NCBI GenBank assembly: GCA_038882655.1
Contig: JAVZNT010000001.1
Span: 96,001 to 160,000 of the forward strand
Origin: Candidatus Bathyarchaeia archaeon
Lineage (GTDB): Archaea > Thermoproteota > Bathyarchaeia > Bathyarchaeales > Bathycorpusculaceae
Direction of reading: 5' to 3'
DNA length: 64,000 nt
Position numbers and translations under genes: made by a program. Shown here piece by piece: positions 20,665-38,995 of the stretch. The notes under the pieces were generated by a model. It had not been told where the DNA came from, searched no databases, and saw only the letters and a list, made by a program, of their open reading frames with translations. Position 1 is the first letter of the stretch; every line of letters starts with the position of its first letter.

Positions 20665-21138
20665 ATGAGAGGGCGGGGAAAAGGCGAGGAACCAGTAATA
20701 AGCCTAACCTTTTCGCGTCCGCTCCCTTCAGGGAGGGACTTAATAGTGGAAAACGTTGCGGATAAAGGATTCGTGGAAGAGCTTAAAAAGGAGTGGCGAA
20801 CCCTGTGGCAGGAGCGGATAGACGATAAGATTAGGGCTGAAGCCGTAGCCAACAGAGACTATGCTGCTTTGTTTGTTGAACGGGGCACTGTGATCTTCGC
20901 AACAAAAAAGTTTAAACTGCTAAGCTTAAAAGAAATTTTGCAGATGCACGGCATTTTAGACGCAGACACATTTGTCCCGCCGAATCCGTCCGTTGGCGGG
21001 TGGGGAAAATTCATAAGAACCGTGATAGCTAACCAGCAATGTTCAAAGCGAAGAAAACGGGCACAACAATATATAGAAGACGAAAAGGAGAGGCAGCAGC
21101 TAAAAAAGGGCGGAAGAGGCTGGCTTCACGTAATCTAG
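20665..21138 (+). CDS. Hypothetical protein
   Basis: 157 aa ORF, co-oriented with the downstream regulator; true start may be near 20746. Confidence 0.6.
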   Translation: MRGRGKGEEPVISLTFSRPLPSGRDLIVENVADKGFVEELKKEWRTLWQERIDDKIRAEAVANRDYAALFVERGTVIFATKKFKLLSLKEILQMHGILDADTFVPPNPSVGGWGKFIRTVIANQQCSKRRKRAQQYIEDEKERQQLKKGGRGWLHVI

Positions 21139-21159
21139 ATAGCCGCTAAGTAAACTTCC

Positions 21160-21519
21160 ATGTCCCCCCTTCGAGTAAAGTCTGGTTCGAGCGGATTAGT
21201 TTTGGGCAGCTATAGGAGCAGATTGGACATTATAGCTGACATCCTTTCAGTTGTTAGGGGTAATGGAAAGGCTAGAAAAACACAAATTATGTACGGTGCG
21301 AATTTAAGCTACGCTGTTTTGACGCGATATCTATCTGACGTTCTAAATGCTTGTCTAATAAAATTTGAAAGCAGTAAACGCTGTTATGTACTAACAGAAA
21401 AGGGAAGAAAGTTCCTTGAGCATTATCGTGAGTATTCTAGACGTAATAGGCATGTGGAACGCCAACTAGAGACCGTTAACGCGAAAAGAAAAGTTTTGGA
21501 GGAACTCTGCTCTGCATAA
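21160..21519 (+). CDS. Winged helix-turn-helix regulator (archaeal HTH_45-like)
   Basis: YRSRLDIIADIL...KTQIMYGANLSY...YVLTEKG. Confidence 0.85.
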   Translation: MSPLRVKSGSSGLVLGSYRSRLDIIADILSVVRGNGKARKTQIMYGANLSYAVLTRYLSDVLNACLIKFESSKRCYVLTEKGRKFLEHYREYSRRNRHVERQLETVNAKRKVLEELCSA

Positions 21520-21531
21520 GGCTCAGTTAAG

Positions 21532-22005
21532 GTGACAATCTTGCATGTTTCGAAAATTTTGATGGTTGTTCTTTTGATTTCGACTGCGCTTTTCATATCG
21601 CCGGCTGCATGCTCCAGTCAGAGAGAGGCCGAATCACGGATTCAATCGGTTGAGGAAGAGGTTCTAAACTGTTACAGGGCTGCTTATGAGGCTGAAAAGG
21701 CTGGGGCTAATGTAAGCGAATTACTCCATAATTTAAATGAGGCTGGATGGCTTTTATCCCAAGCTAAGCACGCCTATAACTGTGAAGATTATGACTTGGC
21801 GGTTTATTTTGCAAATCTGAGCCTAACAAAGCTAGCGGGTTTAGTTGACAAAGCTAACGGTTTAAGGATAGATGCTGAGCAAACTCACTTTTATGATTTC
21901 ATGATCAATTTCGTAGGTTCAGCTGTCGGCGCTGTAGCTATTCTTGTGGTTGGCTACGGTGTTTGGGTTTTCTTAAAAAGACGAGAAAAAACTGTGAGGG
22001 TGTAA
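21532..22005 (+). CDS. Secreted helical protein with C-terminal membrane anchor
   Basis: N-terminal signal, AEKAGANVS.L...LN.A helical motif, C-terminal TM then KRREK. Confidence 0.7.
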   Translation: MTILHVSKILMVVLLISTALFISPAACSSQREAESRIQSVEEEVLNCYRAAYEAEKAGANVSELLHNLNEAGWLLSQAKHAYNCEDYDLAVYFANLSLTKLAGLVDKANGLRIDAEQTHFYDFMINFVGSAVGAVAILVVGYGVWVFLKRREKTVRV

Positions 22006-22008
22006 ATT

Positions 22009-22623
22009 TTGAAAATCGTTGAAAATGGGCTTCTTTATTGGACTGCTGTCGGCGTTTTGGCTTTACTCGTAGCTTCACCTTTCCTTAGCAAGGTTCTGGT
22101 TTATCCTCGAACAGAATTCTTTACGGAACTTTGGATTTTGGATGCTGACCATAAGACTGAAAATTATCCATTTAATGTTACGCCCAATCAACCCTACACT
22201 ATTCATTTGGGCATCGGAAACCGTTTAGGTTATTGCGCCTATTACATGGTTCAAGTGAAGTTTCGAAATCAAACGCAGCCAGAACCGTCAAGTTTCGGAC
22301 CTATTGAAGACCGTGTTCCTAGCAACTTAACCTCACTCTTCAATATTACAGCTTTTGTGGCAGACGAGCAAGTTTACGAGATTCCCTTAACCTTTTCCTT
22401 TAACTATACTTGGGATGAACAGTTTTCAAAAGTTAAGTTCTCATATTTGAGGCTTAATGGTCTATGGTTGAACATGAGCGACTACACGATTTCTTGGGAT
22501 GCTGGAAAAAGAGAGTTTCGGGGATGCTTATTTTTTGAGTTATGGCTATACAATAACGGTGCAAATGATTTTCGATATCATGGGCGTTTTGTTAGGTTAT
22601 GGCTTAACATGACGGTTTATTAA
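22009..22623 (+). CDS. DUF1616-like membrane protein
   Basis: TM followed by EFFTELWIL...ENYPFNV, LGIGNRLG...YY.V.VK, LWLNMT. Confidence 0.7.
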   Translation: MKIVENGLLYWTAVGVLALLVASPFLSKVLVYPRTEFFTELWILDADHKTENYPFNVTPNQPYTIHLGIGNRLGYCAYYMVQVKFRNQTQPEPSSFGPIEDRVPSNLTSLFNITAFVADEQVYEIPLTFSFNYTWDEQFSKVKFSYLRLNGLWLNMSDYTISWDAGKREFRGCLFFELWLYNNGANDFRYHGRFVRLWLNMTVY

Positions 22624-22662
22624 TGGCGTTTGTCATAATGTTTTAGCCATAAGTATTTCTGT

Positions 22663-22736
22663 GCCGGGGTGGCTGAGAAATTAAGCGGCGGCCTGCAGAG
22701 CCGCTTACGTTGGTGAAAATCCAACCCCCGGCTCCA
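22663..22736 (+). tRNA. tRNA-Cys(GCA) with non-canonical D/T loops and encoded CCA
   Basis: Acceptor GCCGGGG/CCCCGGC, D stem GCT/AGC, anticodon stem GCGGC/GCCGC with loop CTGCAGA, T stem GTTGG/CCAAC with loop TGAAAAT, discriminator T then CCA. Confidence 0.9.
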
Positions 22737-22757
22737 TACAATTTCGAGGTGTGAACT

Positions 22758-23876
22758 TTGGTTTGTAGGCGAAGTTTAGAATGGCTTAAAGAGAAGGTTA
22801 AAGATATGCGTTCATTTGAGGGTTCACTTCTTAGCTATGTAGGTTTGCCTATAGAAGCTGAAAGCTGTGATGTATTGAAGCTGGATTCGAATGAAAACTT
22901 TTTTGTGGATGCTAATTTTTTGAGGCAGATTTTTATGGAGGCTTTGGGTGATGTTGATTTAAGGCTTTATAATCCCGGTGTTATGGCGTCTTTAAAGGAA
23001 ACTTTGGGCAAGTATGTTGGTGTTCCCGGCGGATGTGTTTGTGTTGGAAGCGGCGCGGAGCATTTGATCGATTTTATTGCTCAGTCTTTTTTGGGTGCTG
23101 GCGATATGGTTGTTTCCATTGTGCCTAGCTTTTTTATGTATGGAAAGAGGGTTTCGCTTTGTGGCGCCAGCATTGCTAATGTTCCCCTTAAAGGTGATTT
23201 GTCTCTTGATGTCGATGAGATTCTAGCCAAATGCACGGATAAGACCCGACTTGTTTTTATCTGTTCGCCGAACAACCCTACAGGGAATGAGTTTAGCTGG
23301 GGTGAGGTTGAGGCTTTAGCTGATGGGTGTTCCGCTCTTATAGTTGTGGATGAGGCGTATGCAGAGTTTGGTGAAGGCTCTGCATGTCCTAATGCGGTTG
23401 AGAAGGAAAACGTTGTTGTTGTGAGGACTTTTTCTAAGGCTTTCGGTTTGGCTGGGTTGCGTTTTGGCTTTTTGGTTGCAAATGAGAAATTGGCTTCTGC
23501 GTTTTCTGAGGTTATTCCATACACTGTTGGCACTGTTGTGGCGCGTTTTATTGAAAGATTGCTTGAAAAGTGTGATGTTGTGGTAGGCTGGGTTAACGAG
23601 GTCAAAAAGGAGAGGGAGAGGTTGATAAGGGAATTGCGTTCTATTAGCGAAGTTGAAGTTTTTGATTCTAAGGCGAATTTTGTTACTTTTCGACCAGATA
23701 TGAATGCGAACCGCGTTTATAATGGGCTTCTTAAGAGAGGTGTTGTTGTCAAGAACCTTGGCGATTTGCCGGTTATTGGACACTGTTTGAGGGTTACTGT
23801 TGGGCTTCCAGAAATGAACGACAAGTTCCTCAACATGTTAAGGCAAGTTTTAAAAGAAAATGGGCACGGCCCTTAA
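22758..23876 (+). CDS. HisC/CobD-family PLP-dependent aminotransferase
   Basis: LDSNEN, CSPNNPTG, DEAYAEF, RTFSKAFGLAGLRFG, LRVTVG. Confidence 0.88.
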   Translation: MVCRRSLEWLKEKVKDMRSFEGSLLSYVGLPIEAESCDVLKLDSNENFFVDANFLRQIFMEALGDVDLRLYNPGVMASLKETLGKYVGVPGGCVCVGSGAEHLIDFIAQSFLGAGDMVVSIVPSFFMYGKRVSLCGASIANVPLKGDLSLDVDEILAKCTDKTRLVFICSPNNPTGNEFSWGEVEALADGCSALIVVDEAYAEFGEGSACPNAVEKENVVVVRTFSKAFGLAGLRFGFLVANEKLASAFSEVIPYTVGTVVARFIERLLEKCDVVVGWVNEVKKERERLIRELRSISEVEVFDSKANFVTFRPDMNANRVYNGLLKRGVVVKNLGDLPVIGHCLRVTVGLPEMNDKFLNMLRQVLKENGHGP

Positions 23877-23888
23877 GGCAGCATTTTT

Positions 23889-25766
23889 ATGGGCGGAATT
23901 TGCGGCTTTTTAGATTTAGGCGATAAATCGTTACTTAAAAGAATGTCTCAAGAAATTTCACATAGAGGTTTCCACGAAGACTTTTTCGTAGACAAATATG
24001 TGGGCATGTGCTCAAGAAGCATAACCAAAGAAGATGGTTTAGGCAAAAATGAGGACGGTAGCTTACGGGTAGCCTTTGATGGCGAGATTTTCAACGTGGA
24101 AGATTTGCGAGGCGATTTAGAGAAAAGGGGGCATAGTTTTTCTTCTTCTTGCACGGCGGAATTAATAGCCCACCTTTATGAAGAACATGGCTATTCATTA
24201 GTCGATGAGCTTAGAGGAGGTTTTTCCTTCGCTTTATGGGATACCGATAAAAAATTGCTTTTGCTGGCGAGGGATAGGGAAGGCGAAAAATCGGTTTTCT
24301 ACGCTTTTCTTAATGGAAGCATCTATTTTGCGTCTGAAATAAAGCCACTTTTATGCTGCGAGGCAATAGAGAAGAAGTTAAACCCTAGCGGTTTGGACTA
24401 TTATTTTTCATGGGGGCACGTTCCAGCCCCAGAAACCCTTTTTATAGACGTGAAGAAACTTCCTCCTTCACATTTATTAATATATAATTTTGGCGATAAA
24501 AAAATAGTCTTGCATAAGTATTGGGATTTAGACCTTTCAAAAATTGAATACAGTGTTAGCGAAGAGGAGTGGTGTAAAAGAATATATAGTATGCTTGTTG
24601 AATCCGTTTCCATACGATTAAAAGAGAGCCCCTTCGGAATTCTTTTAGGCGGACTTGATTCTAGTGCAGTAGTAGCGTTAATGAAGAAGTTGACGGATAA
24701 ACCGATGAGCTCCGTAACCATAATGTTTGAAAATGAAGAATTTAACGAATCTTACTCTAAATACGTTGCTGAATGGTTAGGAATAGAAGCATATGAGAAG
24801 ACATTGTGTGCAAAGGACTTTATCCGAATAACCCAAAAATTAGCGCAAATTTTTGACGATTTGAGAATAGATCTGCTTATTACAATACCTTCTTTTTTGG
24901 CTCTTGAAACAGCTAAGGAAAAAGCTAAAACAGTGTTTACTGGAGATGGTGCTGATTGCACCTTTTGGAGTTGGGGATGGGACTTTAAACCAAGGAAGTT
25001 GAAAATGCTCTCCATTCGCTCCAGTCTTAAGATGATACGAGAGCATTCGATAAGTTCTTATGAGCTAATGAATGCATCGTTAAAAGTTTGGCATGCCTTC
25101 AAAGATGCTGTTAAGGCAAGGGTATTAACTGTGCATCTTCCGTTTGAATTGCAATCGCTTTATAGTGAACAATACTTTCATGAAGATGAACTTCAAGAAC
25201 TGCTAGGACGCAATTGCACCGTAAATGTATATTCCCCGTTTCTTGAATGTTTGATAAGTCCTGCCGACAATCTTGGGAGTAAGATGAACAAGATGCGATT
25301 AATAAATAGGAAGTTTGAAGTTATTGGAGGATGGGGTGTGGAAAGACTTGGGAATATATGCTCGCATTTTCATCTAGGACTGAGAACCCCTTTTGAAGAT
25401 CATAAGTTAAGAGAACTGGCTGCACGTATTCCACCACAATTAAAACAGCCTAACGTTTTACTTGACAAATTCATCTTTAGGAAGACGTTGTTAAAGTACT
25501 CGCTTTTACCAAAAGAGGTCGTTAAACAGAAGAAATGGGGATTCGGATGGGGACTTGGCGAAATGGCAGCTAAATGGTTTAAGGGAGAGCTAAAAGATTA
25601 TGTTGAACAAGTCGTTAATGAAGAGGCAGCTCTAATTGAACCGGTGTTAGGGAAAAACGTTGTGAAAAAATATATGTGTAAAGGTCGTCCCTTGCAGGTT
25701 TTATCGCTTGTAACTTTTATGCTTTGGTATAAGCGCTTCTTTGAACAAGATAAAGTGGTGGGATAA
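23889..25766 (+). CDS. Asparagine-synthetase-like amide ligase
   Basis: FDGEIFN, LARDR.G.K, FASEIK, GGLDSS, TGDGAD, RTPF, K.GF; N-terminus MGGICG lacks Cys2. Confidence 0.85.
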   Translation: MGGICGFLDLGDKSLLKRMSQEISHRGFHEDFFVDKYVGMCSRSITKEDGLGKNEDGSLRVAFDGEIFNVEDLRGDLEKRGHSFSSSCTAELIAHLYEEHGYSLVDELRGGFSFALWDTDKKLLLLARDREGEKSVFYAFLNGSIYFASEIKPLLCCEAIEKKLNPSGLDYYFSWGHVPAPETLFIDVKKLPPSHLLIYNFGDKKIVLHKYWDLDLSKIEYSVSEEEWCKRIYSMLVESVSIRLKESPFGILLGGLDSSAVVALMKKLTDKPMSSVTIMFENEEFNESYSKYVAEWLGIEAYEKTLCAKDFIRITQKLAQIFDDLRIDLLITIPSFLALETAKEKAKTVFTGDGADCTFWSWGWDFKPRKLKMLSIRSSLKMIREHSISSYELMNASLKVWHAFKDAVKARVLTVHLPFELQSLYSEQYFHEDELQELLGRNCTVNVYSPFLECLISPADNLGSKMNKMRLINRKFEVIGGWGVERLGNICSHFHLGLRTPFEDHKLRELAARIPPQLKQPNVLLDKFIFRKTLLKYSLLPKEVVKQKKWGFGWGLGEMAAKWFKGELKDYVEQVVNEEAALIEPVLGKNVVKKYMCKGRPLQVLSLVTFMLWYKRFFEQDKVVG

Positions 25767-25767
25767 A

Positions 25768-27117
25768 ATGAGTGCTGGAGAACATCTCAAGGTCAACGAG
25801 AATAACCACTTAGCACTTCATGAAGTTGATTTAGTTAGTCTGTGCGAGAAGTATGGCACTCCGCTTTTTGTTTTCGATGAGACTAGCTTAGTTGAAAGTT
25901 TTGAGAGGTTTAAGCGGGCTTTTGAGAGTATTTATCCAAAGGTTATGGTTTGTTATTCTATTAAAACCAACAATAACCTAGCTTTATGCAAAATACTCTT
26001 CGAAAGAGGCGCTTACGCGGAAGTTTCTTCAGAACTGGATTTGCACGTAGCTTTGAAAGCTGGATTCCACGGAGACCGAATAATTTATGATGGGCCCTTT
26101 AAGCCTACCAAGACATTGGAAAAGGCCGTTGAAAATGAGGTTCTGCTTATCAACTGTGAGTCTTTTGTTGAGTTGGAAAGGCTTAATGAAGTCGCTGAGA
26201 AGTTTAAGGTTAAGCAATCAATAGGGTTAAGGGTTAATCCTTTTAAGCGTCCAAGTTTTCTGCGAAGTTTGCATCCGAAAACTCTTTTAGAAGAGGCCGC
26301 TTTTTGTTTCCCAAGCTGTAGGTTTGGTTTTTCTATAAGCGAAGTTTATGAAGCTTTTAAATTATTGAAAAAGCTTGAAAATTTGCGTCTTGAGTGTCTT
26401 ATGACGCATCCCTATCACAGGGCGATTAGTGTTCTTATGCCCCTTTTTAAGGAAGCTCATCGGAATCTTGGCTTTGAAATTAAATATCTCAATGTTGGGG
26501 GTGGCTTTAACCCTGGCACAAGTGGTTCAACGGGAGACCTTTTGTTGGCTTTAGACCATGTCAAAAGGGGTTTAAGGATGAAGTCTACTTTAGATCAGGA
26601 GAGGCACATGAGAAGCATCGATGATGTTGCCCGAACAGTTGTAAATGAAGTTAAGCAAAACCTTGAAGGTTTGCCTGAACCAACTTTGATAACTGAGCCT
26701 GGCCGCTTTATTGTCGGTCCTTCTGGGTTGCTGCTTTTGAGGGTTGATCACGTTAAATCTGCTGGTGGTTTCAAATGGATTATTGTGAATGGTGGTACAA
26801 ACATTGTTCCAAGCTTCTATGAGAGGCGTGAAATTCTAGTTGCTAACAATGGTTCTGCTTCGGAGAAGGAGTTAGTTAATGTTGTTGGTCCGCTTTTGTA
26901 TCCTAAGGATTTTATTGCTATCAAGACGTGGCTTCCGAAGGCTAAGGAAGGGGACATACTGGCTGTTCTTGATTGCGGAGCTTATTCGCTTTCAAGTTCC
27001 ACACAGTTTCTTTACCCCAGACCGCCAGCGGTTTTGGTAAACTCGCGTGGAGATGTGTATCTAATTCGTGAAAGAGAGAGTTTTGAAGACGTAACTGCAA
27101 AGGATATAGTTCCCTAA
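25768..27117 (+). CDS. Fold-III PLP-dependent decarboxylase (LysA-like)
   Basis: YGTPLFV, YSIKTN (PLP Lys), NVGGGF, EPGRFIV, GAY; GPLLYP in place of the usual GP.C motif. Confidence 0.85.
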   Translation: MSAGEHLKVNENNHLALHEVDLVSLCEKYGTPLFVFDETSLVESFERFKRAFESIYPKVMVCYSIKTNNNLALCKILFERGAYAEVSSELDLHVALKAGFHGDRIIYDGPFKPTKTLEKAVENEVLLINCESFVELERLNEVAEKFKVKQSIGLRVNPFKRPSFLRSLHPKTLLEEAAFCFPSCRFGFSISEVYEAFKLLKKLENLRLECLMTHPYHRAISVLMPLFKEAHRNLGFEIKYLNVGGGFNPGTSGSTGDLLLALDHVKRGLRMKSTLDQERHMRSIDDVARTVVNEVKQNLEGLPEPTLITEPGRFIVGPSGLLLLRVDHVKSAGGFKWIIVNGGTNIVPSFYERREILVANNGSASEKELVNVVGPLLYPKDFIAIKTWLPKAKEGDILAVLDCGAYSLSSSTQFLYPRPPAVLVNSRGDVYLIRERESFEDVTAKDIVP

Positions 27118-27126
27118 CGCTTTTGG

Positions 27127-28251
27127 TTGGTTATTATGCTTAGCTTGCGTGTTATCGCCGATTTAGAGGATTTTGAAAATTTAGGAAGCATGTGGAACAA
27201 AATATTAGCAAAGTCTTTAGATAACGATGTCTTTTCCACACGGGAATGGATCTGGTGTTGGTGGAAGCATTTTGGCAAAAAAAGAAGTTTACGAGTGCTT
27301 GTCGCTGAAGAAAATGGCGAGATTGTTGGCTTAGCCCCTTTTGCACTTACAGAATATTCTTTCTTGCGTGTTGGAAAGTTGAGGCGCATCGAGTTTATTG
27401 GTTTCCCTCATGCAGATTATAACAACTTTATTTTAGTCAGAAATCCATCTGATTGTTTAAGGCTCTTTATTGAAGGCTTAATGAAGTTTGCAGACTGGGA
27501 TTTTCTGGATTTAAGGGATATTCGCGAACAAAGTGCATCAGCAAACAGTTTACGTATGCTCCTAAACATTGAAGGAGCAAAGTTAAGGTTAACAAATGGC
27601 ACTCTTTGCCCCTGCATTAATTTGCCAAGATCCATTGAAACCTTCCAAAGCAACTTAAGTCGCAACATGCGGAGAAACCTACGGAAAAGGTTAAGGAAGC
27701 TTCGCGAAAGCTATAAAGTTGAATTTAAGACGCAGCGGGATTTTGACTCTATTGATGAGGCGATGGAAATATTTTTCAACCTCCACCAGAAACGTTGGAA
27801 ATCTAAGGGAAAGCAAGGCGCCTTCGCAGCTGAGGATTTCAGAAAGTTTCATTTGGACGTTGCAAAAGTTTTCGATAAAAAAGGTTGGCTTGACTTGCAT
27901 TTCTTAATGGCAAACGACGAGCCAGTTGCCGCAGCCTACACCTTCGACTATAACTCGAAGAAGTATGGCTATTTAACTGGTTTCGATCCTGAATTTGGGC
28001 ATTTCGGTGTTGGAAATCTGTTAAAGTTGCATCTAATTGAGGAATGCATCAAAAAGGGGTTTAGGGAGTACGATTTAACAAGGGAATTTGAACCCTATAA
28101 GGCGGAGTGGGCAACTGTTATTAGGAAAAATCTGATTGCGAGAATTGTTCGACGGGGCTTGTCCGCCAAAATGTATTGCTGGGCTTTAGAGAACAAGTTT
28201 TCACAATGGCTTTTCACTAGATTGGGTGTTCGTTTATCAGTTAGAGAATAG
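27127..28251 (+). CDS. CelD/BcsL-type (Fem-related) GNAT transferase
   Basis: W..CWWKHF, VGLAPF, DYNNF, LSRNMRRNLRKRLRKL, YDLTR..EPYK.EW. Confidence 0.82.
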   Translation: MVIMLSLRVIADLEDFENLGSMWNKILAKSLDNDVFSTREWIWCWWKHFGKKRSLRVLVAEENGEIVGLAPFALTEYSFLRVGKLRRIEFIGFPHADYNNFILVRNPSDCLRLFIEGLMKFADWDFLDLRDIREQSASANSLRMLLNIEGAKLRLTNGTLCPCINLPRSIETFQSNLSRNMRRNLRKRLRKLRESYKVEFKTQRDFDSIDEAMEIFFNLHQKRWKSKGKQGAFAAEDFRKFHLDVAKVFDKKGWLDLHFLMANDEPVAAAYTFDYNSKKYGYLTGFDPEFGHFGVGNLLKLHLIEECIKKGFREYDLTREFEPYKAEWATVIRKNLIARIVRRGLSAKMYCWALENKFSQWLFTRLGVRLSVRE

Positions 28252-28266
28252 CTAAATGCCACTTGG

Positions 28267-29298
28267 GTGAGTATCAGAATGACAGAATATCGCGTGATTG
28301 AAGATTCGCCGAAAGATTCATGGGATTCATTTCTACAGAAACATTCTGTTGGGAATTTTGAGCAGTGTTTTGAGTATGGCGAAATATCGAGAAAGGCTTT
28401 TCCAAAAACAAATGTTGTTAGACTAGCGTGTACGCGTGGAAACGAAGTCGCTGGTGTACTTCAAGGAACTTACTCTAAATATTTCGGGTTTGGCATGACT
28501 TTAGGCGTCATGCGTGCTCCTTTTGTGAATTTCGAAGATGAAGACGCTGTAAACATTGTGAAGAGTCTTCTTGAGAGTTTAGAAGACTATGCCAAGAGAA
28601 ACCGGATTATTGAAGTCCGTGTCTTTGTGCCCGAAGCATGGGGTTTCCACAATGTGTTTCAATCTCTTGGGTACACGGTTACTGAACAGCTGAACGAATA
28701 TATCGTGGATTTAGAGAAAGGTGTCGACGAGCTTTGGAAGGGCGTCTCCCATAACAAGAGGAAAAATATTAAAAAGGCTATGAGTCAAGGCGTAGAGGTC
28801 TTCGAATCTCGGAAAAGAGAGGATCTGTTGACTTTTTACTCTATGCTTAGGGCTGCAGAAGAAAGGGGGGGATTTACAAGCTACCCATTGTCTTGGTTTG
28901 AAGCGGCTTTGGAATTGTACAATCCAGACTTGTTAAGGGTTTTTCTTGCAAGCTGGAATGGGAAAGCTGTTTCAGGAGTTTTTACCGTTGCACATGGCAG
29001 GACTGTTTTCGCTTTGGCTGCTGGCTCGTTTAGCGAAGGCTGGAAAGTTAGACCCAACGATATTATGCACTGGAAAGTCATGGAGTGGGCTTGCCAAAAA
29101 GGATACAGCAGGTATCAGATGGGTCTAGTTTCAGAACCACCGCCGAGTGAAGGCTCGAAGGCTTGGGGAATTTGGAGATGGAAAAGGGAATGGGGTGGAA
29201 GCCTAAACAAACTTCAAGTTTACCATAAGTACTTTAAGCCTCGATACAAGCTTATTTTAAAAGCTAAAAAGATTGTAGAAAAGTTTGCTGCACGATGA
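28267..29298 (+). CDS. FemAB/FemX-family (aminoacyl-tRNA-dependent) transferase
   Basis: WDSFLQ..GNFEQ, VDLEKGVDELWKGVSHNKRKNIKKA..QGV, PNDIMHW..MEWA...GY..Y.MG, GIWRWKREWGG. Confidence 0.8.
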   Translation: MSIRMTEYRVIEDSPKDSWDSFLQKHSVGNFEQCFEYGEISRKAFPKTNVVRLACTRGNEVAGVLQGTYSKYFGFGMTLGVMRAPFVNFEDEDAVNIVKSLLESLEDYAKRNRIIEVRVFVPEAWGFHNVFQSLGYTVTEQLNEYIVDLEKGVDELWKGVSHNKRKNIKKAMSQGVEVFESRKREDLLTFYSMLRAAEERGGFTSYPLSWFEAALELYNPDLLRVFLASWNGKAVSGVFTVAHGRTVFALAAGSFSEGWKVRPNDIMHWKVMEWACQKGYSRYQMGLVSEPPPSEGSKAWGIWRWKREWGGSLNKLQVYHKYFKPRYKLILKAKKIVEKFAAR

Positions 29299-29347
29299 TT
29301 CAACCAATTTCCCGTATGAACCGTAAAACCTACAAGAAATGGCTGGG

Positions 29348-30038
29348 ATGAACATCGAACAGAAAGCGAATAATAATATTTGCACCCCACCCCGATGACG
29401 AGACCTTCGGTTGTGGAGGAACAATCGCTAGGCGAGTAAGTGAAGGATACGATGTTTTAATCGTCGTTATGACCGATGGTAGATACGCCTTCCTAAAAAT
29501 GCTAAACATTGATTCCGACCCCACTCCTGAAGAATTGAAAGAGATTAGAAAAGAAGAAGTGAAAAGAGCCACAAAAATTTTGGGAGTACCCGAAGAAAAT
29601 TTAATCTTCCTCAATTTTGAGGACGGAACCCTTCGAAACAGCATGGAAGAAGCTGAAAGAAAAGTTACCGAAATATTAAAGATGTACCGTCCAGTTGAAG
29701 TTTATTTCCCTTATAAAAGTGATGTTCATCCAGATCATCAAGCTGCGTACCACATTGTCAAAGGTGCCGTTGCAAGAGCTGGTTTCCCGATAAATGGCTA
29801 TCAGTATTCCACATTTCATAAGTATATGCGCCTAGGTCCGATTATTGATAGGACACTGGGCATTATTAGGCGTAATATAATTCGAGTCGATGTTTCAAAA
29901 TTTCTTTCAAAAAAGGAAGCAGCCATTAAGGAGTTCAAAAGTGAACTATCGATCATATCAAACGTCCAGAAAAATCCTCTTATAAAAGCCAAAGATATCA
30001 AAAATTATTTGAAAAGTAAAGAGCTGTTTTTAAAATAG
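29348..30038 (+). CDS. PIG-L/LmbE family deacetylase (start anomalous)
   Basis: APHPDDETFGCGG lies in frame upstream of the ORF-track start; R.EE..RA..ILG and DVHPDH follow; in-frame TGA at 29349-29351. Confidence 0.75.
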
Positions 30039-30089
30039 ACTATTAAGTGTGCAATGTGACACGGCTTTTATTGTAAGGAGAAAGAGGAC

Positions 30090-31142
30090 ATGATAAACGT
30101 TGGAATTATTGGCCTTGGCCATATGGGTATACTTCACTTAATGAATTGCCGACATATTGATGGCGTTAAAGTTGTTGCTGTAGCTGACAAGTCTAAAGGA
30201 GCCTTAAAAAAGGCTGAACTTTTTGGTGTGAAAGCTTTTTTCACAGATTATCAAGATTTATTGAAGGGACCTCCTAAGGTTGATACAGTCATTATTGCTT
30301 TGCCTAATTTTATGCATTTTGAGAGCATTCAGAGCGCGCTAGAAGCAGGTGTTGATGTTTTTGTAGAAAAACCGTTGGCAAACACCGTTGAAGAATGCGA
30401 GAAAATCATTAAGCTTGTCGAAAAAAGTGGCAGAAAATTAATGGTAGGTCATAATATGCGATTTATTGAGGCAGTTGCGAAAATGAAGGGGGCCATAGAT
30501 AGAGGACATATTGGCGATGTAGAGGCAATTACACTTGAACAGATATTAAATGGACCCTTTGCTCACGGTGCAATTCCTAGGCCCGTGGCGGAATGGTGGT
30601 TCGATCCTAAACGGGCAGGGGGTGGAGTTTTACTGGACTTGGGATATCACATGCTTGATTTGTTTCGTTTCTTTGTCGGGGAAGATCCAGAAGTGATATT
30701 TTCATATTTAAGCTACAAATTTAACTTACCAACGGAAGACGGCGCAATTGTTATACTACGATCCCCCGTTTCAGGTGCAAGGGGAATAGTCAACGTTGGT
30801 TGGTTTCAAAAATCCGTTTTCCCGGAATACAATTTCCGCGTAGTTCTTCATGGTTGCGCAGGCTTCATTTCCAGTGAAAACCTTGCACCGAGAAACATTT
30901 ACTTTCATGCAATTAAAGAAGGAACGAAAAATATTCTGCGGAAAACTTTCGGGAGGAAAATAAAGCCTTTATCTTGGTCTTACTATTACGAAGCCTATTA
31001 TAAAGAACTCCAAAGCTTTTTCAGTTGTGTAAGGAATGACTCGGAACCGCCTGTTTCAGCTGTTGATGGCCTAAAGACCGTGGAGCTTATCGAGAAGGTC
31101 TACAAAAAGTTTGGTAAAAAAGAACCTCGACGGGACGTATAG
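30090..31142 (+). CDS. Gfo/Idh/MocA oxidoreductase
   Basis: GIIGLGHMG, VEKPLA, GGGVLLDLGYHMLD. Confidence 0.9.
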   Translation: MINVGIIGLGHMGILHLMNCRHIDGVKVVAVADKSKGALKKAELFGVKAFFTDYQDLLKGPPKVDTVIIALPNFMHFESIQSALEAGVDVFVEKPLANTVEECEKIIKLVEKSGRKLMVGHNMRFIEAVAKMKGAIDRGHIGDVEAITLEQILNGPFAHGAIPRPVAEWWFDPKRAGGGVLLDLGYHMLDLFRFFVGEDPEVIFSYLSYKFNLPTEDGAIVILRSPVSGARGIVNVGWFQKSVFPEYNFRVVLHGCAGFISSENLAPRNIYFHAIKEGTKNILRKTFGRKIKPLSWSYYYEAYYKELQSFFSCVRNDSEPPVSAVDGLKTVELIEKVYKKFGKKEPRRDV

Positions 31143-32070
31143 AAAATTGGGCGACATTGTAGGTTTAGTCCGAACACTAGACTCAAAAGAGGAAATAAAA
31201 AGTTCCATAGGAAAAGCCCTCGACCTCATAAATTTTAAACCAAAGGGTCGTGTAAAAGTTATAGACATCAAGGTTAACTTGTGTTATTATTGGCATGCTT
31301 CTACGGGTTGCACAACAGACCCCCGGGTTGTTAGTGCGATAATAGACTGTGTGCGTGAACGGTATGGTGAGAACGTTCGCATTCGAGTTGTTGAGGCCGA
31401 TGGAACTGCAATGAGAACAAAATATGCCTTTCTGATGCTGGGCTATGAAAAGCTAGCCAAGGAGAAAAATGTGGAACTTTTTAACCTCTCGGAAGACGAG
31501 GTACGTGAAGAAAAGGCTTATGTAAATGGGCATGAAATCCGATTCCAAATACCTACGTCGCTTTTAAAATCTGATCTTTTTATTAATGTGCCAAAACTGA
31601 AAACTCTTAGGGAAACCGGATTCTCATGTGCCCTCAAAAATATTTATGGTTGTATAGCCTATCCCAGGAAGATAATTTATCATCCCATTTTAGATGAAGC
31701 AATCGTTGGAATAAACAAGATACTGCAGCCAAACCTCACGATAGTTGACGGTATTATTGCCCTTGGACGTTTTCCAATTAAGCTTGGGCTTATTATGGCT
31801 GGTAGAGATCCATTTTCTATTGACTGGGTTGCCGCGAAAATAATGGGTTTTAATCCTTCAAAAGTTAAGTTCTTGAAGATCGCTATAAAAGAGAATGTTG
31901 GAAGTTTAAATGGTCTTCAAGTTCAAGGAGACGATATCATTTTTTTCCGGAAATCCTTTCCTAAAGTAGGCTTATTTTCGTCTAAGCGTTGGTGGAATTT
32001 GCTTTTTGGTTTATTTCATTTATATATTAAATTGACTGGTGATGTAATTCCTCCAATGCTTGAAAAATAA
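31111..32070 (+). CDS. DUF362-domain protein
   Basis: IKVNLC, TTDPRVV, INVPKLKT, ALKNIYG, IVDGI, DPFSID. Confidence 0.82.
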   Translation: MVKKNLDGTYRKLGDIVGLVRTLDSKEEIKSSIGKALDLINFKPKGRVKVIDIKVNLCYYWHASTGCTTDPRVVSAIIDCVRERYGENVRIRVVEADGTAMRTKYAFLMLGYEKLAKEKNVELFNLSEDEVREEKAYVNGHEIRFQIPTSLLKSDLFINVPKLKTLRETGFSCALKNIYGCIAYPRKIIYHPILDEAIVGINKILQPNLTIVDGIIALGRFPIKLGLIMAGRDPFSIDWVAAKIMGFNPSKVKFLKIAIKENVGSLNGLQVQGDDIIFFRKSFPKVGLFSSKRWWNLLFGLFHLYIKLTGDVIPPMLEK

Positions 32071-32081
32071 ATTGAGGTCAA

Positions 32082-33254
32082 TTGTGGATGGGCATTCTCG
32101 TTTTAACTGTTCTATGGCTGGTATTTTGCATTTTTTCGTTCGGGGCGTCAGCTCTAATTTTTGTTTTAATGAAAAATGCCGCAAAAAAGCCTTGGCGAAT
32201 AAAGATAGACGAAAATTATAAGCCGAGAGTGTCTGTGTTGGTTCCAACTTTTAATGAAGCAGATGTTATCCGTTTTAAGCTTGAAAATTTAATTAAAGTG
32301 AAATATCCAGAGGATTTGATGCAGATAATTGTTGTGGATTCAAACTCTCAGGATCAAACAGTTGACATGGTGAAAACCTTCATGGCACAATGCCCAAGAA
32401 ACAATATTCAGGTTTTGGTAGAAAATGAGCGTAGAGGGAAATCTGCAGCTTTGAATTTTGCTCTCAAAAAATGCAAAGGGAACGTTGTGATAGTTTCAGA
32501 TGCTGATTGTTTTTGGCCTTCAGATATCATGGAAAAGACTTTACCTTTCTTAGCTGATCCAAGCATAGGGGCGGTTTCCGGCCCTAAAGTTCTTTTAAAT
32601 CCGGATCAAACTTGGGTGACGAGAACTGAGGATTCTTATCTGAATTCAATGAATATGGTGAGGGTTGGTGAATCAAAGGTGGGTTCAACCTTGCTTTTTG
32701 AGGGCGGTTTCAGTGCTTATAGAAAAGAGCTGTTAGATTCTTTTGACCCTTATGATACTGGTTCGGACGATTGCGGTACTATAGTGGCTTTAGTGGAGAA
32801 GGGGTATAGGGCTATATGCGTTCCTGAAGCCCGTTTTTACAGCACTTTTCCAAAGTCTTGGAGAGAGAAAATAGACATAAAAATGAGAAGAGCTAATCAG
32901 CTTGTGAGGGTTTTATGGAAGTATCTTGGTCTGCTTTTAAGAGGTCGTGTGAGGGTTTCAAAGAGGATCATAGTTCAAGGCATCTTTATTTACCTCATCA
33001 GCCCAATAATGTTCATTGCTTTGGCTGTAACCACTGCTTGCTTATTGTTTAATTTTCCATATTTGTCTCTGGCTTTTTTGGTTTTCCTTATACCTCATGT
33101 TGGCCTTTATTTATTTGAGTTGATTCAAAGCTACCTTATACTTTTCGTTTCCATGTTTGCTGTATTAATGAACAAAAAATTCGTGATGTGGAAAAAACCA
33201 AGGGACAGGTTGCTTCTTCAAGAGGATGTCTTACGTAAATATCAATTGATTTAG
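32082..33254 (+). CDS. Membrane GT2 glycosyltransferase (PgaC/cellulose-synthase-like)
   Basis: VPTFNE, DSNSQDQT, GKSAALN, SDAD, SDD; N- and C-terminal TMs. Confidence 0.88.
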   Translation: MWMGILVLTVLWLVFCIFSFGASALIFVLMKNAAKKPWRIKIDENYKPRVSVLVPTFNEADVIRFKLENLIKVKYPEDLMQIIVVDSNSQDQTVDMVKTFMAQCPRNNIQVLVENERRGKSAALNFALKKCKGNVVIVSDADCFWPSDIMEKTLPFLADPSIGAVSGPKVLLNPDQTWVTRTEDSYLNSMNMVRVGESKVGSTLLFEGGFSAYRKELLDSFDPYDTGSDDCGTIVALVEKGYRAICVPEARFYSTFPKSWREKIDIKMRRANQLVRVLWKYLGLLLRGRVRVSKRIIVQGIFIYLISPIMFIALAVTTACLLFNFPYLSLAFLVFLIPHVGLYLFELIQSYLILFVSMFAVLMNKKFVMWKKPRDRLLLQEDVLRKYQLI

Positions 33255-34290: not shown

Positions 34291-35286
34291 TTGGCAGAGA
34301 AACTTCGTGTTGCCGTTGTGGGTCTAGGCAAAATGGGATTGATGCATGTTGGAATTTTAAACACTTTACCAAAAGTTGAATTGGTCGCGGTGTGTGAGAA
34401 AAATTGGCTGATCCGGAGAGTTGCAAAAAAAGTGTTTAAGCCGACTCATGTAGTTGATGACTTGAAGAAACTTCGTGGTTTAAACCTTGATGCTGTTTAT
34501 GTTACAACACCCATAAAGTCCCATTTCCCTATAGTGAAAGCTATGTATTCAGAGGGAATAACCTCCAACGTTTTTGTTGAAAAAACTCTTGCGTCCAGTT
34601 TTAATGAAGCAAAAGAACTGTGCGATTTAGCTCGAAAATTTGGCGGCATCAATATGGTTGGCTATCAAAGAAGGTTTTCTGTTGTATATAGAAAGGCGAA
34701 AGATTTGCTTGATCAAAAAGTTATAGGAAAACCTATATTATTCGAGGCGTACGCGTATTCATCCGACTTTTTTGGAATCCAAAACTCTCTTGAAACCTCA
34801 ACACTTGGTGTAGACGCTATTAGGGATATAGGGTGTCATGCAATAGATGTGGCTTTATGGTTTTTCGGAGAACTGCAAATTAAATCAGCAAAGGAAGAAA
34901 CACCAGCAAATATCCATTTTGAATGTGGGGGGTTGCATGGTATAAGCGGAAAATTCAGCGTGTCACAGTGTATGAAAAATTACCGCATGCCAGAGGTTGG
35001 TTTAAAAATCACCGGTTCTATGGGAATCATGGAAGTGAATGATGACAAATTGTTTTTAAAGCGAAAAGATGGGAAGTCCTCTACGTGGTATAGGCACGAT
35101 CTCGGCGATAACGTCGCATTTTTGCTCGGATCACCTGAATACTTCCGCGAGGATGAGCATTTTATAAATTCAGTTTTACAAGGAAGCCCAGCGGGGTCGA
35201 GCTTTGACACCGCCATGAAAGTTGACGAGCTAATAGATCAAATAATGGATAAGTTTGATGGCGATGATAAACCTTCTAACGATTGA
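34291..35286 (+). CDS. Gfo/Idh/MocA oxidoreductase
   Basis: VVGLGKMG, VEKTLA, DIGCHAID. Confidence 0.88.
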   Translation: MAEKLRVAVVGLGKMGLMHVGILNTLPKVELVAVCEKNWLIRRVAKKVFKPTHVVDDLKKLRGLNLDAVYVTTPIKSHFPIVKAMYSEGITSNVFVEKTLASSFNEAKELCDLARKFGGINMVGYQRRFSVVYRKAKDLLDQKVIGKPILFEAYAYSSDFFGIQNSLETSTLGVDAIRDIGCHAIDVALWFFGELQIKSAKEETPANIHFECGGLHGISGKFSVSQCMKNYRMPEVGLKITGSMGIMEVNDDKLFLKRKDGKSSTWYRHDLGDNVAFLLGSPEYFREDEHFINSVLQGSPAGSSFDTAMKVDELIDQIMDKFDGDDKPSND

Positions 35287-36103
35287 TGTTGAAGACTGGT
35301 ATCATGATCTAAAGCCGTCTTTATGGAAGGTATGCGAGGATAGGGTAGTCGAAAATACGCAGAAAATACTTTACATGATTGAAAAGCACAAGCATAACGC
35401 AACATTCTTTACACTCGGATGCGTGGCGGAACGCTTTCCAGAATTAATCAAACAAATCAGTGACGAAGGACATGAAATCGCCACACATGGATATTTACAC
35501 AAACCAATAACCAAGATAAGCAAAACTGAATTCGAAGAAGACTTAAAAAAATCGCTTTCCATCTTAACGCATATAACAAACCGCAAGATAATAGGACATA
35601 GAGCATGCAAATTTTCAATCACCCAAAAAACTGCATGGGCTGTAGATACACTCAAAAAGAACGGACTAAAATATGACTCAAGCATATTCCCCGCAAAAAC
35701 CCCAGAATATGGTGTTCCAAGAGCCCCAATTCATCCTTACCTTATCTCATCAGCAAACATCGAGAAAAATAACCAGAACGGTGACCTCATAGAATTTCCG
35801 TTATCCGTTCTCAGAATCCCAATTCTAGATATAAGTATTCCAGTGGCTGGTGGATTTTATCTGCGTCTTCTCCCTTACTGGTTAATCAGAGCTTCTTTGA
35901 GAAAAATAAACAGAATGGGATATCCAGCTGTTGTTTTTATTCACCCAAAGGATTTAGACCCGCAAAAACCACGGGTGAAAGAGTTGAGTTGGCACCATTA
36001 TTATGGTTTGGAAGGTGCAGAAGAAAAATTTGCTAAATTACTTGGCGATTTTAGGTTTACATCTATTGAAAACTACCTAAGAGAGTTTGGTTTCGATGCC
36101 TAA
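35255..36103 (+). CDS. Polysaccharide deacetylase with DUF3473-like C-terminus (PEP-CTERM-locus type)
   Basis: LTIDVEDWYH, ATFFTLG, GHEIATHG..H, YDSSIFP, GGFYLRLLP, FIHPKDLDP. Confidence 0.88.
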   Translation: MMAMINLLTIDVEDWYHDLKPSLWKVCEDRVVENTQKILYMIEKHKHNATFFTLGCVAERFPELIKQISDEGHEIATHGYLHKPITKISKTEFEEDLKKSLSILTHITNRKIIGHRACKFSITQKTAWAVDTLKKNGLKYDSSIFPAKTPEYGVPRAPIHPYLISSANIEKNNQNGDLIEFPLSVLRIPILDISIPVAGGFYLRLLPYWLIRASLRKINRMGYPAVVFIHPKDLDPQKPRVKELSWHHYYGLEGAEEKFAKLLGDFRFTSIENYLREFGFDA

Positions 36104-38050: not shown

Positions 38051-38995
38051 ATGAAGAGGCGAAGAACGAAATTGAATGAAAACAAAATAACTTTACTGGT
38101 CGGCGATAATCCTTTCCTAGGCATAAGTCACCTATCCCAAGAAAGAGCCAGAGACAGAGAAAATACCTTGGACGATCCCAAAAACTGTGCCCACCTAGTT
38201 GCGGTCTCCGTCATGAACGGAGCTGACGGTTTCATGTTCTCAGTATGCGACAAAACCCTCGCGATTATAAAGGAACTGCACAAAAATGACATAATCACCG
38301 ATGTAGACCTTTATGCGATAGTGCCATATGCCTTTGAATATGTTAGACTGGCTGCTCAAACCGGAGGTTTTTCAGGTTTAGCTAAGAAAGTTTTAAAGGA
38401 TATGGTTTCAACTGGAGACTTGATGGCTATTTTGAGGGGGTTGAAAGGAGTAGCCATGGTCGATATTTCATCATTAATAAAGGCTTATCTCTCTTATGAA
38501 ATCTCAAGAATAAAATCTTCAGCGGGAAAAAAGGGACATTTAAAGTCAATTATGCTTCATCAAGCTGTAACCGACTTAGCCTTATCCTTTAACCTTAAAT
38601 CCCTTTTTAAAGCGTATGCCAACTTCACTTCGGGTTTAGGGATAAAACCTGGCTTTAACACTGGAAACTTTCCGCTTTTGGTTCAGAGATTAAAAGAATG
38701 GGGTATCAACTTAAGCGAAACTGTAATTGCTGCTCCATTTAACAAGGTTGGGTTTCAAATGAACCCCTCAAAGGAGGGGTGCGAAAAGGCTCTAGCGGCT
38801 TTTCCCGAACCAACGGTTATTGCAATTAGTGTCTTAGCTGCTGGTTATCTGAAACCGTTGGAGGCTGTAGATTACATAAAGGCTTTACCCAACATAGACG
38901 GAGTTGTCGTGGGCGTATCTAAAGAAAAACATGCAAACGAGACTTTTAGGCTGTTTAGAGAAAGTTTTGCGGAAACTGGAATGAAAACGGGATGA
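38051..38995 (+). CDS. Hypothetical TIM-barrel-like protein
   Basis: LLVGDNPFLGISHLSQ, PFNKVGFQMNP, IAISVLAAGYL. Confidence 0.6.
   Translation: MKRRRTKLNENKITLLVGDNPFLGISHLSQERARDRENTLDDPKNCAHLVAVSVMNGADGFMFSVCDKTLAIIKELHKNDIITDVDLYAIVPYAFEYVRLAAQTGGFSGLAKKVLKDMVSTGDLMAILRGLKGVAMVDISSLIKAYLSYEISRIKSSAGKKGHLKSIMLHQAVTDLALSFNLKSLFKAYANFTSGLGIKPGFNTGNFPLLVQRLKEWGINLSETVIAAPFNKVGFQMNPSKEGCEKALAAFPEPTVIAISVLAAGYLKPLEAVDYIKALPNIDGVVVGVSKEKHANETFRLFRESFAETGMKTG

Follow-up and report, generated by a model that had tools for sequence, protein, structure and literature searches.

A variant tRNA-Cys heading a glycan gene operon suggests a dedicated non-ribosomal tRNA in Bathyarchaeia

The DNA analysed here, called the window, is a 64,000-nucleotide stretch from a Candidatus Bathyarchaeia archaeon (contig JAVZNT010000001.1, positions 96,001 to 160,000). 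It encodes a tRNA-Cys(GCA) with unusual loops (window positions 22663-22736, plus strand), hereafter the variant tRNA, which stands immediately upstream of a co-oriented run of glycan-modification genes, two of them for putative Fem-fold transferases. The gene is an extra tRNA-Cys copy, it is conserved, it is linked to the operon, and one of the downstream products belongs to the Fem family; these observations suggest, short of proof, a dedicated non-ribosomal tRNA that would supply cysteine to a surface sugar. We tentatively favour, with somewhat less than even confidence, the view that the variant tRNA is a co-transcribed and specialised cysteinyl-tRNA donor for glycan aminoacylation. The original prediction, made from the letters of the window, had already proposed a specialised tRNA-Cys: the extra copy, the gene linkage and the Fem likeness are borne out, the notions of an elbow-less molecule and of phosphoserine delivery are not, and cysteine transfer to a glycan stays a proposal. 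Below, the genome of the window is G000, and other genomes and loci carry G and L numbers where they must be told apart.

Results

An extra tRNA-Cys with intact stems and altered loops

The variant tRNA is the sole tRNA that ARAGORN calls in the window, and it scores 54.4 bits against the Rfam tRNA model (RF00005; gathering score 29). As read from the sequence, all pairs form in the acceptor stem (7/7), the anticodon stem (5/5) and the T stem (5/5), and the D stem has three pairs plus G13/A22. The anticodon loop CTGCAGA provides the anticodon GCA and G37, U73 and CCA are both encoded, and the variable loop counts 4 nucleotides (nt). The D loop, AGAAATTA, is devoid of GG and the T loop reads TGAAAAT: the near-universal combination of G18 G19 with T54 Psi55 C56 is not found, and the loss covers the positions (G18, G19, U55, C56) that are lost in cell-wall-type tRNAs. 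The stems, GCA, U73, G37, CCA, missing D-loop GG and TGAAAAT loop listed in the original prediction were thus all recovered by ARAGORN, Rfam and reading of the sequence. In the ARAGORN set for the genome, 20 of the 21 tRNAs have a TTC-type T loop together with a D-loop GG; the variant tRNA is the sole exception and has neither.

The G000 assembly (1.02 Mb, 27 contigs, 84% complete) also holds a canonical tRNA-Cys (contig 3, 51691-51764) with a D-loop GG, the T loop TTCAACT, a 5-nt variable loop and no encoded CCA, so that the variant tRNA is an extra copy. Acceptor stems are identical in the two tRNAs. Such a second, canonical tRNA-Cys, on which the proposal of a specialised tRNA depended, accompanies the variant in all six genomes that carry it (in G002 a contig end cuts it off after the first 44 bases). 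The genome encodes a cysteinyl-tRNA synthetase (CysRS; 522.9 bits; contig 9, 2790-4172), and no phosphoseryl-tRNA synthetase (SepRS, TIGR00470) over cut-off was found in this 84% complete assembly, where the best match reaches 89 bits for a cut-off of 380.65. The suggestion that SepRS might charge the variant tRNA, and that phosphoserine rather than cysteine might be delivered, is rejected for G000 on these grounds. An archaeal CCA-adding enzyme is present (contig 20, 10952-12184).

The variant tRNA recurs and covaries

BLAST with the 74-base variant tRNA against 41 relatives found close copies in G002, of the same genus, and in G026, of another family of the order; canonical copies lie elsewhere in both genomes. 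A pattern scan of 185,579 species genomes returned 41 stretches, six of which are real tRNA-Cys with the variant T loop: four of Bathyarchaeota type (G041, G042, G043 and G002) and two in bacterial tRNA arrays. Metagenomes yielded 31 stretches, including 14 archaeal-type variant tRNAs and nine bacterial array tRNAs. The archaeal set thus comprises 20 loci (six genomes and 14 metagenome contigs) and 18 distinct sequences, and judged by this recurrence the variant tRNA is no chance oddity.

When the 18 sequences are aligned, 99.4% of stem cells are paired and both sides have changed in 10 of the 20 pairs. None of 500 shuffles reached these values for pairing and covariation, and controls in which the alignment was slid drop to 30-52% paired. 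GCA, U73 and G37 are retained in all 18. The search patterns behind 15 of the 18 fix TGCAGA, the T-loop core and TCCA, and so build in part of the constancy at these places; this does not apply to the stem covariation, and GCA, G37 and U73 are also retained in each of the seven intact syntenic copies found solely through the neighbouring HisC-like protein (see below). Since stem pairing is this complete and half of the pairs are compensated, beyond anything seen in the shuffles, the variant tRNA is, by its sequence record, under selection as a tRNA, in line with the earlier claim of selection rather than decay.

Linkage to a HisC-like gene and a Fem module

Between the 3' end of the variant tRNA and the open reading frame (ORF) at 22758 lie 21 nt. 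The co-oriented run that had been described about 20 bp after the tRNA is therefore real, and its gene families are as stated. The first gene encodes a HisC-like class I/II aminotransferase (22758..23876, plus strand; TIGR01141, 287.8 bits, cut-off 276.55) and is the sole G000 gene above that cut-off. Chance adjacency of a housekeeping hisC to a tRNA was considered and rejected, the cluster HisC-like proteins being a distinct group: orthologues of the cluster type are 52-78% identical, the best matches in other relatives reach at most 43%, and most genomes of the genus have no HisC-like match at E 1e-40.

A search for this protein (E 1e-110 or better) across the order, in a sample of 401 genomes, identified eight genomes (G000, G026, G041, G042, G043, G160, G296 and G441). 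In all eight, a tRNA-Cys or a remnant of one lies directly upstream of the HisC-like gene in the same orientation, 4-24 nt from the first codon. Such a gap leaves no room for a separate archaeal promoter, and the operon is thus probably transcribed through the tRNA. The T loop of the syntenic tRNA is TGAAANT in five genomes and normal in G160 (TTCAAAT) and G441 (TTCAAGT); G296 has a 5' half that comprises the acceptor strand, D arm and 5' anticodon stem (L146 6028-6062). CCA is encoded in all five variant-loop copies and in neither of the two normal-loop copies. In this small sample, encoded CCA tracks the variant T loop, a hint that, with its T loop altered, the tRNA is recognised differently by at least one enzyme that reads the elbow. 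The cluster-type HisC-like gene of G441 (L173 1501-2619) contains one in-frame TAA and stands next to the normal-loop tRNA devoid of CCA; this module may be decaying.

Across the 20 archaeal loci, the first gene downstream of the variant tRNA is a full HisC-like gene in ten, a truncated one in two (G002 and L124), another glycan gene in four (L111, L119, L133 and L114) and a gene of unknown function in four. A Fem orthologue follows 3.9-7.3 kb downstream in five of the seven loci that have at least 5 kb of downstream sequence, L119 and G002 being the exceptions. Fem is rare: it occurs in three of the 41 relatives and in six of the 401 genomes of the class sample. A pattern scan of that class sample, with the CCA requirement dropped, matched 17 genomes, and the three real variant tRNAs among these matches all sit in Fem-positive genomes. 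The remaining Fem-positive genomes are G160, G296 and G407, the last with Fem in another context and no tRNA beside it. Co-occurrence of the variant with Fem-like genes, as had been anticipated, therefore holds as a linkage that spans at least four families of the order, and is weakened by the Fem-less locus L119 and by the G160 and G296 modules, which have Fem and no variant tRNA.

In G002, the variant tRNA stands with a truncated HisC gene and a methyltransferase gene among PIN-domain genes, at least six of which surround this relic (L035 6000-15000). In G042, a second and degenerate copy of the variant tRNA (L107 14225-14296, minus strand; T loop TGCAAAT, broken stems) sits within the module, with the full decarboxylase gene just downstream and a 98-residue decarboxylase fragment and two inserted glycan genes upstream, a sign of rearrangement at the tRNA.

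A rewritten tertiary pair at the elbow

D-loop places were counted from A14 as place 1, with numbering by position in loops of equal length. In the canonical tRNA-Cys of these archaea, places 4-5 read GG, together with U55 C56, for 20 of the 24 distinct sequences, and AG in the two syntenic copies whose T loops are normal. All 18 variant tRNAs have G55 A56, with AU at places 4-5 in 15 sequences, AA in two and GA in one. By these alignments the G19:C56 pair appears rewritten to a Watson-Crick U19:A56 pair, and G18/Psi55 to A18/G55; because 19:56 still pairs as U:A, the sequences argue that the L shape is kept. The label elbow-less that the original prediction had given the molecule is thus wrong: GG/UC to AU/GA is a paired change that keeps the 19:56 pair.

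The T stem also differs. Position 51:63 is U:A or C:G in 17 of the 18 variant tRNAs and G:C in all 21 canonical-type tRNA-Cys (the syntenic copy of G160, with U:G, was left out). A control weakens this pair as a sign that the tRNA is kept from the elongation factor, since five of the 20 other tRNAs of G000 have no G:C at 51:63. The sole other G000 tRNA with U:A there is a tRNA-Met(CAT) (contig 2, 116809-116887); this is possibly the initiator, an identity that would agree with a link of the 51:63 pair to avoidance of the elongation factor.

Similar loops occur in bacteria. Bacterial tRNA arrays of up to 17 tRNAs per locus contain a tRNA-Cys with a TGAAART T loop and a D loop that has no usual GG (L077 3315-3389; L091 1014-1088; L113, L118, L123, L126, L127, L134, L136, L138, L140). 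Two of these loci belong to metagenome-assembled genomes, one of Acidimicrobiales and one of Planctomycetota, and the neighbouring array tRNAs that were looked at have normal T loops. Four of the five distinct bacterial array sequences have A-U at D-loop places 4-5.

Two Fem-fold enzymes encoded in one operon

The FemAB-family gene (28267..29298, plus strand) passes PF02388 with 85.8 bits for a cut-off of 24, which upholds the original FemAB-like call. Searched by sequence against the PDB, its product matches Staphylococcus aureus FemX over residues 18-335 (E 4e-17) and Weissella viridescens FemX (5.5e-11). An AlphaFold (AF2) model built from eight orthologues has a mean confidence (pLDDT) of 89.2 and a predicted FemX-like double-GNAT fold, with Foldseek TM-scores (TM) of 0.76-0.80 to FemX structures. 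The 11 best PDB matches of the model are without exception aminoacyl-tRNA-dependent enzymes (FemX, FemA, Sbb17/Sba18; TM 0.70-0.80), and tandem GNATs that use acyl-CoA and MprF domains rank lower (TM 0.4-0.6).

Residues W300, W303, R304, W305, K306, E308 and W309, which take in the WRWK motif, are invariant in the eight orthologues, and the F-K of S. aureus FemX falls opposite W305-K306 in the alignment. Lys305 of W. viridescens FemX is described as its only reactive active-site residue, with Phe328-Lys329 as the counterpart in DhpH-C (excerpts of PMC12945691). The putative equivalence of K306 with that Lys305 comes from these review passages, the sequence alignment to the W. viridescens chain stopping short of the region. 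In sequence and predicted fold, the Fem-like protein is closest to aminoacyl-tRNA-dependent transferases, a likeness by which it would use an aminoacyl-tRNA donor. In public data, more than 120 clusters of Fem orthologues are found at 45% identity or more; those with names are from Bathyarchaeota-type and Asgard archaea, under automatic labels such as 'lipid II:glycine glycyltransferase'.

The preceding gene encodes an Acetyltransf_6 (GNAT) protein (27127..28251, plus strand; PF13480, 131.3 bits). It had been called a CelD-type GNAT; the GNAT family assignment holds, and the protein is now better placed as a paralogue of the Fem-like protein. An hhalign comparison with the Fem alignment gives a probability of 95.3% (E 2.1e-8) over 294 columns, and Y324-K325 aligns with W305-K306 of the Fem-like protein. 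By this profile alignment it is a full-length Fem paralogue, and the operon accordingly encodes two Fem-fold enzymes. A PDB search with its sequence gave no match, and its AF2 model was poor (pLDDT 66; Foldseek TM to FemX about 0.3) and was not used.

The surrounding gene cluster

On the upstream side of the variant tRNA, exosome and proteasome housekeeping genes are followed by two plus-strand genes. The first encodes an HTH_45 winged-helix regulator (21160..21519; PF14947, 81.4 bits), a conserved upstream member with homologues at the same side in G026, G041, G043, G160 and G296. The second encodes a DUF1616-like membrane protein (21532..22623; PF07760, 30.3 bits, slightly short of its 31.6 cut-off) and ends 39 nt before the tRNA. 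The latter gene is read as two ORFs in the window (21532-22005 and 22009-22623); its G026 counterpart is a single ORF of 384 residues, of which residues 31-382 match window 21556-22617 in a single frame, and the split may stem from an error or from a stop codon that is read through.

Downstream, the co-oriented run is on the plus strand. After the HisC-like gene come an AsnB-like glutamine amidotransferase (23889..25766; PF00733, PF13537; best NCBIfam match TIGR03108, 290.3 bits for a cut-off of 816.9), of which no orthologue was found in the other modules compared, and an Orn/DAP/Arg-type pyridoxal-phosphate decarboxylase (25741..27117; PF02784, PF00278), a core gene with orthologues 54-67% identical in all modules. 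The two Fem-fold genes are followed by a PIG-L family de-N-acetylase (PF02585; 29355..30038, called as an ORF at 29469-30038), whose best NCBIfam match is BshB1 (69.9 bits, cut-off 182.5). With the G160 orthologue as query, tblastn finds 61% identity from window position 29355, the HPDDE motif included; the frame has no ATG, GTG or TTG before 29469, and an ATG at 29347 is out of frame. The lack of a start for this N-terminus may be due to a frameshift, to an error in the assembly or to an unusual start codon.

Next are a GFO/IDH/MocA oxidoreductase that resembles sugar 3-dehydrogenases (30090..31142; PF01408, PF02894; 1.5e-43 to NF040723, archaeal UDP-GlcNAc 3-dehydrogenase, under cut-off) and a DUF362 protein (31111..32070; PF04015, 129 bits), a core gene with orthologues in G026, G042, G043, L110, G160 and G296. 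They precede a membrane family-2 glycosyltransferase (GT2) of synthase type (32082..33254; PF13641, PF00535) with weak matches to NodC, PgaC and CelA, and further on stands a CE4 polysaccharide deacetylase with DUF3473 (35255..36103; PF01522, PF11959; TIGR03006, 261.1 bits for a cut-off of 276.2). Further glycosyltransferases, a methyltransferase, a GH5 enzyme, another AsnB-like protein and a DUF2206 membrane protein extend the run. Compared across genomes, the module core consists of the HisC-like, decarboxylase, Fem, Acetyltransf_6 paralogue, PIG-L, GFO, DUF362 and GT2 genes; modules of G026, G042, G043 and L110 contain an ATP-grasp ligase.

The best-conserved cluster gene (38051-38995; about 54-70% identity across loci) encodes a 314-residue protein that has no Pfam or NCBIfam family and whose matches in the Atlas are hypothetical proteins only; it nearly always stands beside a GFO-type oxidoreductase gene and often next to the variant tRNA. 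No RNA dataset was listed for window 22500-25000, and contigs from four sequencing runs matched 21000-31000 in short pieces that are uninformative about transcription. Pfam scans of the cluster ORFs detected no Mur-type genes (no genome-wide search was made), and non-exhaustive Pfam scans of window ORFs from 11156 to 48474 detected no integrase or transposase family.

Discussion

A special tRNA that works with Fem enzymes is not unprecedented. Staphylococci have non-proteinogenic tRNA-Gly in which G18, G19, U55 and C56 are missing and U19 stands next to U18 or C18 (excerpts of PMC4574755), so that the precedent invoked in the original prediction for losing G18G19 and T-loop elements is in print. 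These cell-wall tRNA-Gly also lack G51-C63, and they are encoded in a unit together with further tRNAs and rRNAs (excerpts of PMC12256121). Like the tRNA-Gly used by FemX, FemA and FemB, the variant tRNA is an extra isoacceptor that shares the identity of the translational tRNA; both lack G18, G19, U55, C56 and G51-C63 and have U19 (as far as the same excerpts describe the staphylococcal molecules), and both are paired with Fem-family enzymes. The differences are (i) the amino acid, here cysteine; (ii) the host, an archaeon with no shown peptidoglycan; (iii) the gene order, the variant tRNA heading the Fem operon while the staphylococcal genes stand among tRNAs and rRNAs (excerpts of PMC12256121); and (iv) the 19:56 pair, which here looks re-paired as U:A.

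On the enzyme side, FemX of W. viridescens and S. aureus (PDB 1NE9, 4II9, 6SNR) shares with the Fem-like protein PF02388, the double-GNAT fold (TM 0.76-0.80) and, by alignment with the F-K of the S. aureus enzyme, the aromatic-Lys motif. Identity is 17-20%, however, no peptidoglycan precursor pathway is evident in the cluster, and the acceptor is probably a sugar amine. An acceptor of that kind is known for Sbb17/Sba18 (Orf11-type), which depend on Gly-tRNA and place glycine on an amine of the amino-sugar compound streptothrisamine (excerpts of PMC12945691). They have the Fem fold in common with the Fem-like protein (Foldseek TM 0.70-0.73); theirs is a bacterial antibiotic pathway, and no dedicated tRNA is described for it in those excerpts.

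Two other systems resemble the cluster by gene content. XrtA/PEP-CTERM exopolysaccharide loci bring together the same four protein kinds: FemAB-type, deacetylase, amidotransferase and decarboxylase. XrtA models are the best or near-best NCBIfam matches of the window proteins, all under cut-off (FemAB-type TIGR03019, 72.1 for 260.35; decarboxylase TIGR03099, 137.1 for 478.45; deacetylase TIGR03006 and amidotransferase TIGR03108 likewise), so that by these models the cluster does not qualify as an XrtA locus. We know of no tRNA gene in XrtA/PEP-CTERM loci. Mycothiol and bacillithiol are made with a PIG-L deacetylase, a cysteine ligase and a GNAT. The cluster shares with that synthesis a PIG-L deacetylase (best match BshB1), a candidate cysteine-adding step and a GNAT-fold protein; in contrast, BshB1 is under cut-off, the cysteine step here would depend on tRNA, and the many glycosyltransferases point to a polymer, not to a small thiol. 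As to the literature, our search returned no paper that links Bathyarchaeota or Bathyarchaeia with tRNA-Cys variants or FemAB; among the titles listed on dedicated tRNAs in clusters of aminoacyl-tRNA-dependent enzymes there was no archaeal case, and excerpts of the PEP-CTERM/FemAB literature, including PMC1569441, contain no statement on tRNA use.

How could such a system work? We infer charging of the variant tRNA, transfer of its amino acid to an acceptor and its exclusion from the ribosome, as follows. The variant tRNA would be transcribed as the leader of the glycan-modification operon and then cut out of the transcript. The ordinary CysRS would charge it, because its GCA, G37, U73 and acceptor stem are those of the canonical copy. 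Charged variant tRNA would donate cysteine to one or both Fem-fold transferases (28267-29298 and perhaps 27127-28251), which would attach it to a sugar, or a polymer of sugars, at a free amine. That amine could arise from de-N-acetylation by the PIG-L or CE4 enzyme, or from oxidation by the GFO enzyme followed by transamination by the HisC-like enzyme. Another side chain that bears an amine could be assembled by the decarboxylase acting with the ATP-grasp or AsnB-type ligase. The changes in the T arm and D loop (A18 U19, G55 A56, no G51:C63) would keep the L shape, and altered recognition by factors that read the elbow or the T arm may reserve part of the cysteinyl-tRNA pool for the glycan pathway.

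Several observations weigh against this scheme. Intact HisC-decarboxylase-GNAT-Fem-PIG-L modules accompany a normal-T-loop tRNA in G160 and a tRNA 5' half only in G296, so that the special loops are not needed for the module, and variant, normal and broken states of the syntenic tRNA all occur within one genus. Conversely, the variant tRNA heads 10.6 kb of glycan genes with no Fem-fold gene at L119 and precedes glycan genes that include neither Fem nor its paralogue at L111, L133 and L114; in G002 (80% complete), neither Fem-fold protein was found genome-wide. The variant T loop is present in bacterial array tRNA-Cys that have no visible Fem link. With U:A at 19:56 the variant tRNA may fold normally and serve the ribosome, and the 51:63 pair is not diagnostic, given the other G000 tRNAs with no G:C there. 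Finally, it is adjacency of the tRNA, only, that names cysteine as the putative donor.

Part of this evidence would suit other readings, not all of which exclude a specialised donor. The variant tRNA could be a redundant, translation-competent tRNA-Cys with a neutral alternative elbow (U19:A56), carried inside a glycan cluster. We regard this as unlikely, though as a serious contender: the 19:56 covariation retains a Watson-Crick pair, every identity element is intact, bacterial array tRNA-Cys share the T loop, syntenic T loops switch between variant and normal within one genus, and the tRNA is retained where Fem is absent. However, these genomes of about 1-3 Mb otherwise have one canonical tRNA-Cys and hold the variant at this locus only; the odd loops are kept in 18 sequences (partly fixed, it is true, by the search patterns); and a place 4-24 nt before the first module gene in all eight protein-found genomes is hard to credit to chance. 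That same short gap would be expected if the tRNA acted mainly in cis, as a leader whose strong promoter and RNase P/tRNase Z site define a short 5' end of the mRNA, the tRNA itself being a by-product. By eye, most loci show A/T-rich, TATA-like stretches 20-30 nt ahead of the tRNA, and the tRNA heads several kinds of glycan operon, with and without Fem. Yet a processing signal needs no GCA, G37 or U73, which all seven intact protein-found copies keep, and the G296 module is intact with half a tRNA; a mainly cis-acting role is in our view unlikely, slightly more so than redundancy.

More improbable still, we think, is that the tRNA gene is a recombination or integration landmark for the exchange of glycan cassettes, its odd sequence being a scar. 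Downstream content does vary between a HisC module, a GFO-type oxidoreductase with an unknown gene, and a GT2; L110 and L124 are identical over 70 nt upstream and differ downstream; and the second, degenerate G042 copy sits inside a module beside a decarboxylase fragment. Against this stand the lack of any integrase or transposase in the Pfam scans of window ORFs, the fact that D loop and T loop are both variant, unlike in a simple replacement of the 3' half, and the stem covariation, which signals selection on the RNA itself. Broken copies are known (the G296 stump, the second G042 copy and G002, which has a one-base insertion) and could suggest a decaying pseudogene. But 99.4% stem pairing and ten compensated pairs over 18 sequences from several families of the order bring that reading close to refutation, and we consider it highly improbable.

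The broader proposal would be that of a first archaeal case of tRNA-dependent, non-ribosomal aminoacylation, in which a private tRNA-Cys feeds two Fem-fold enzymes that place cysteine on a surface glycan or a small sugar thiol. We put it forward with some doubt, a little more guardedly than the role of the variant tRNA as a specialised donor. Very few systems with dedicated non-ribosomal tRNAs are known, the staphylococcal cell wall chief among them; a special tRNA with a Fem enzyme is known from there, and new here would be the archaeal host, cysteine as the donor amino acid, the glycan-cluster context and a tRNA gene within the operon. Even if the Fem link does not hold, the paired change of GG/UC to AU/GA, seen in the archaeal sequences and in bacterial arrays, offers a clean natural test for the tertiary pair 19:56. 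If the link is functional, a pair of tRNAs of the same identity with different elbows would serve as a probe of what reads G18, G19, Psi55 and C56 in archaea, candidates being the CCA-adding enzyme, aEF1A, the ribosome and modification enzymes. Cysteine would then join the donor amino acids of Fem-type enzymes, and tRNA-dependent aminoacyl transfer would reach archaeal glycans. Should the whole proposal be true, these wall-less archaea would have sugar chains that bear thiols and are possibly joined by disulfides, and the system would be the functional counterpart of the bridge that Fem enzymes and tRNA-Gly build in staphylococci.

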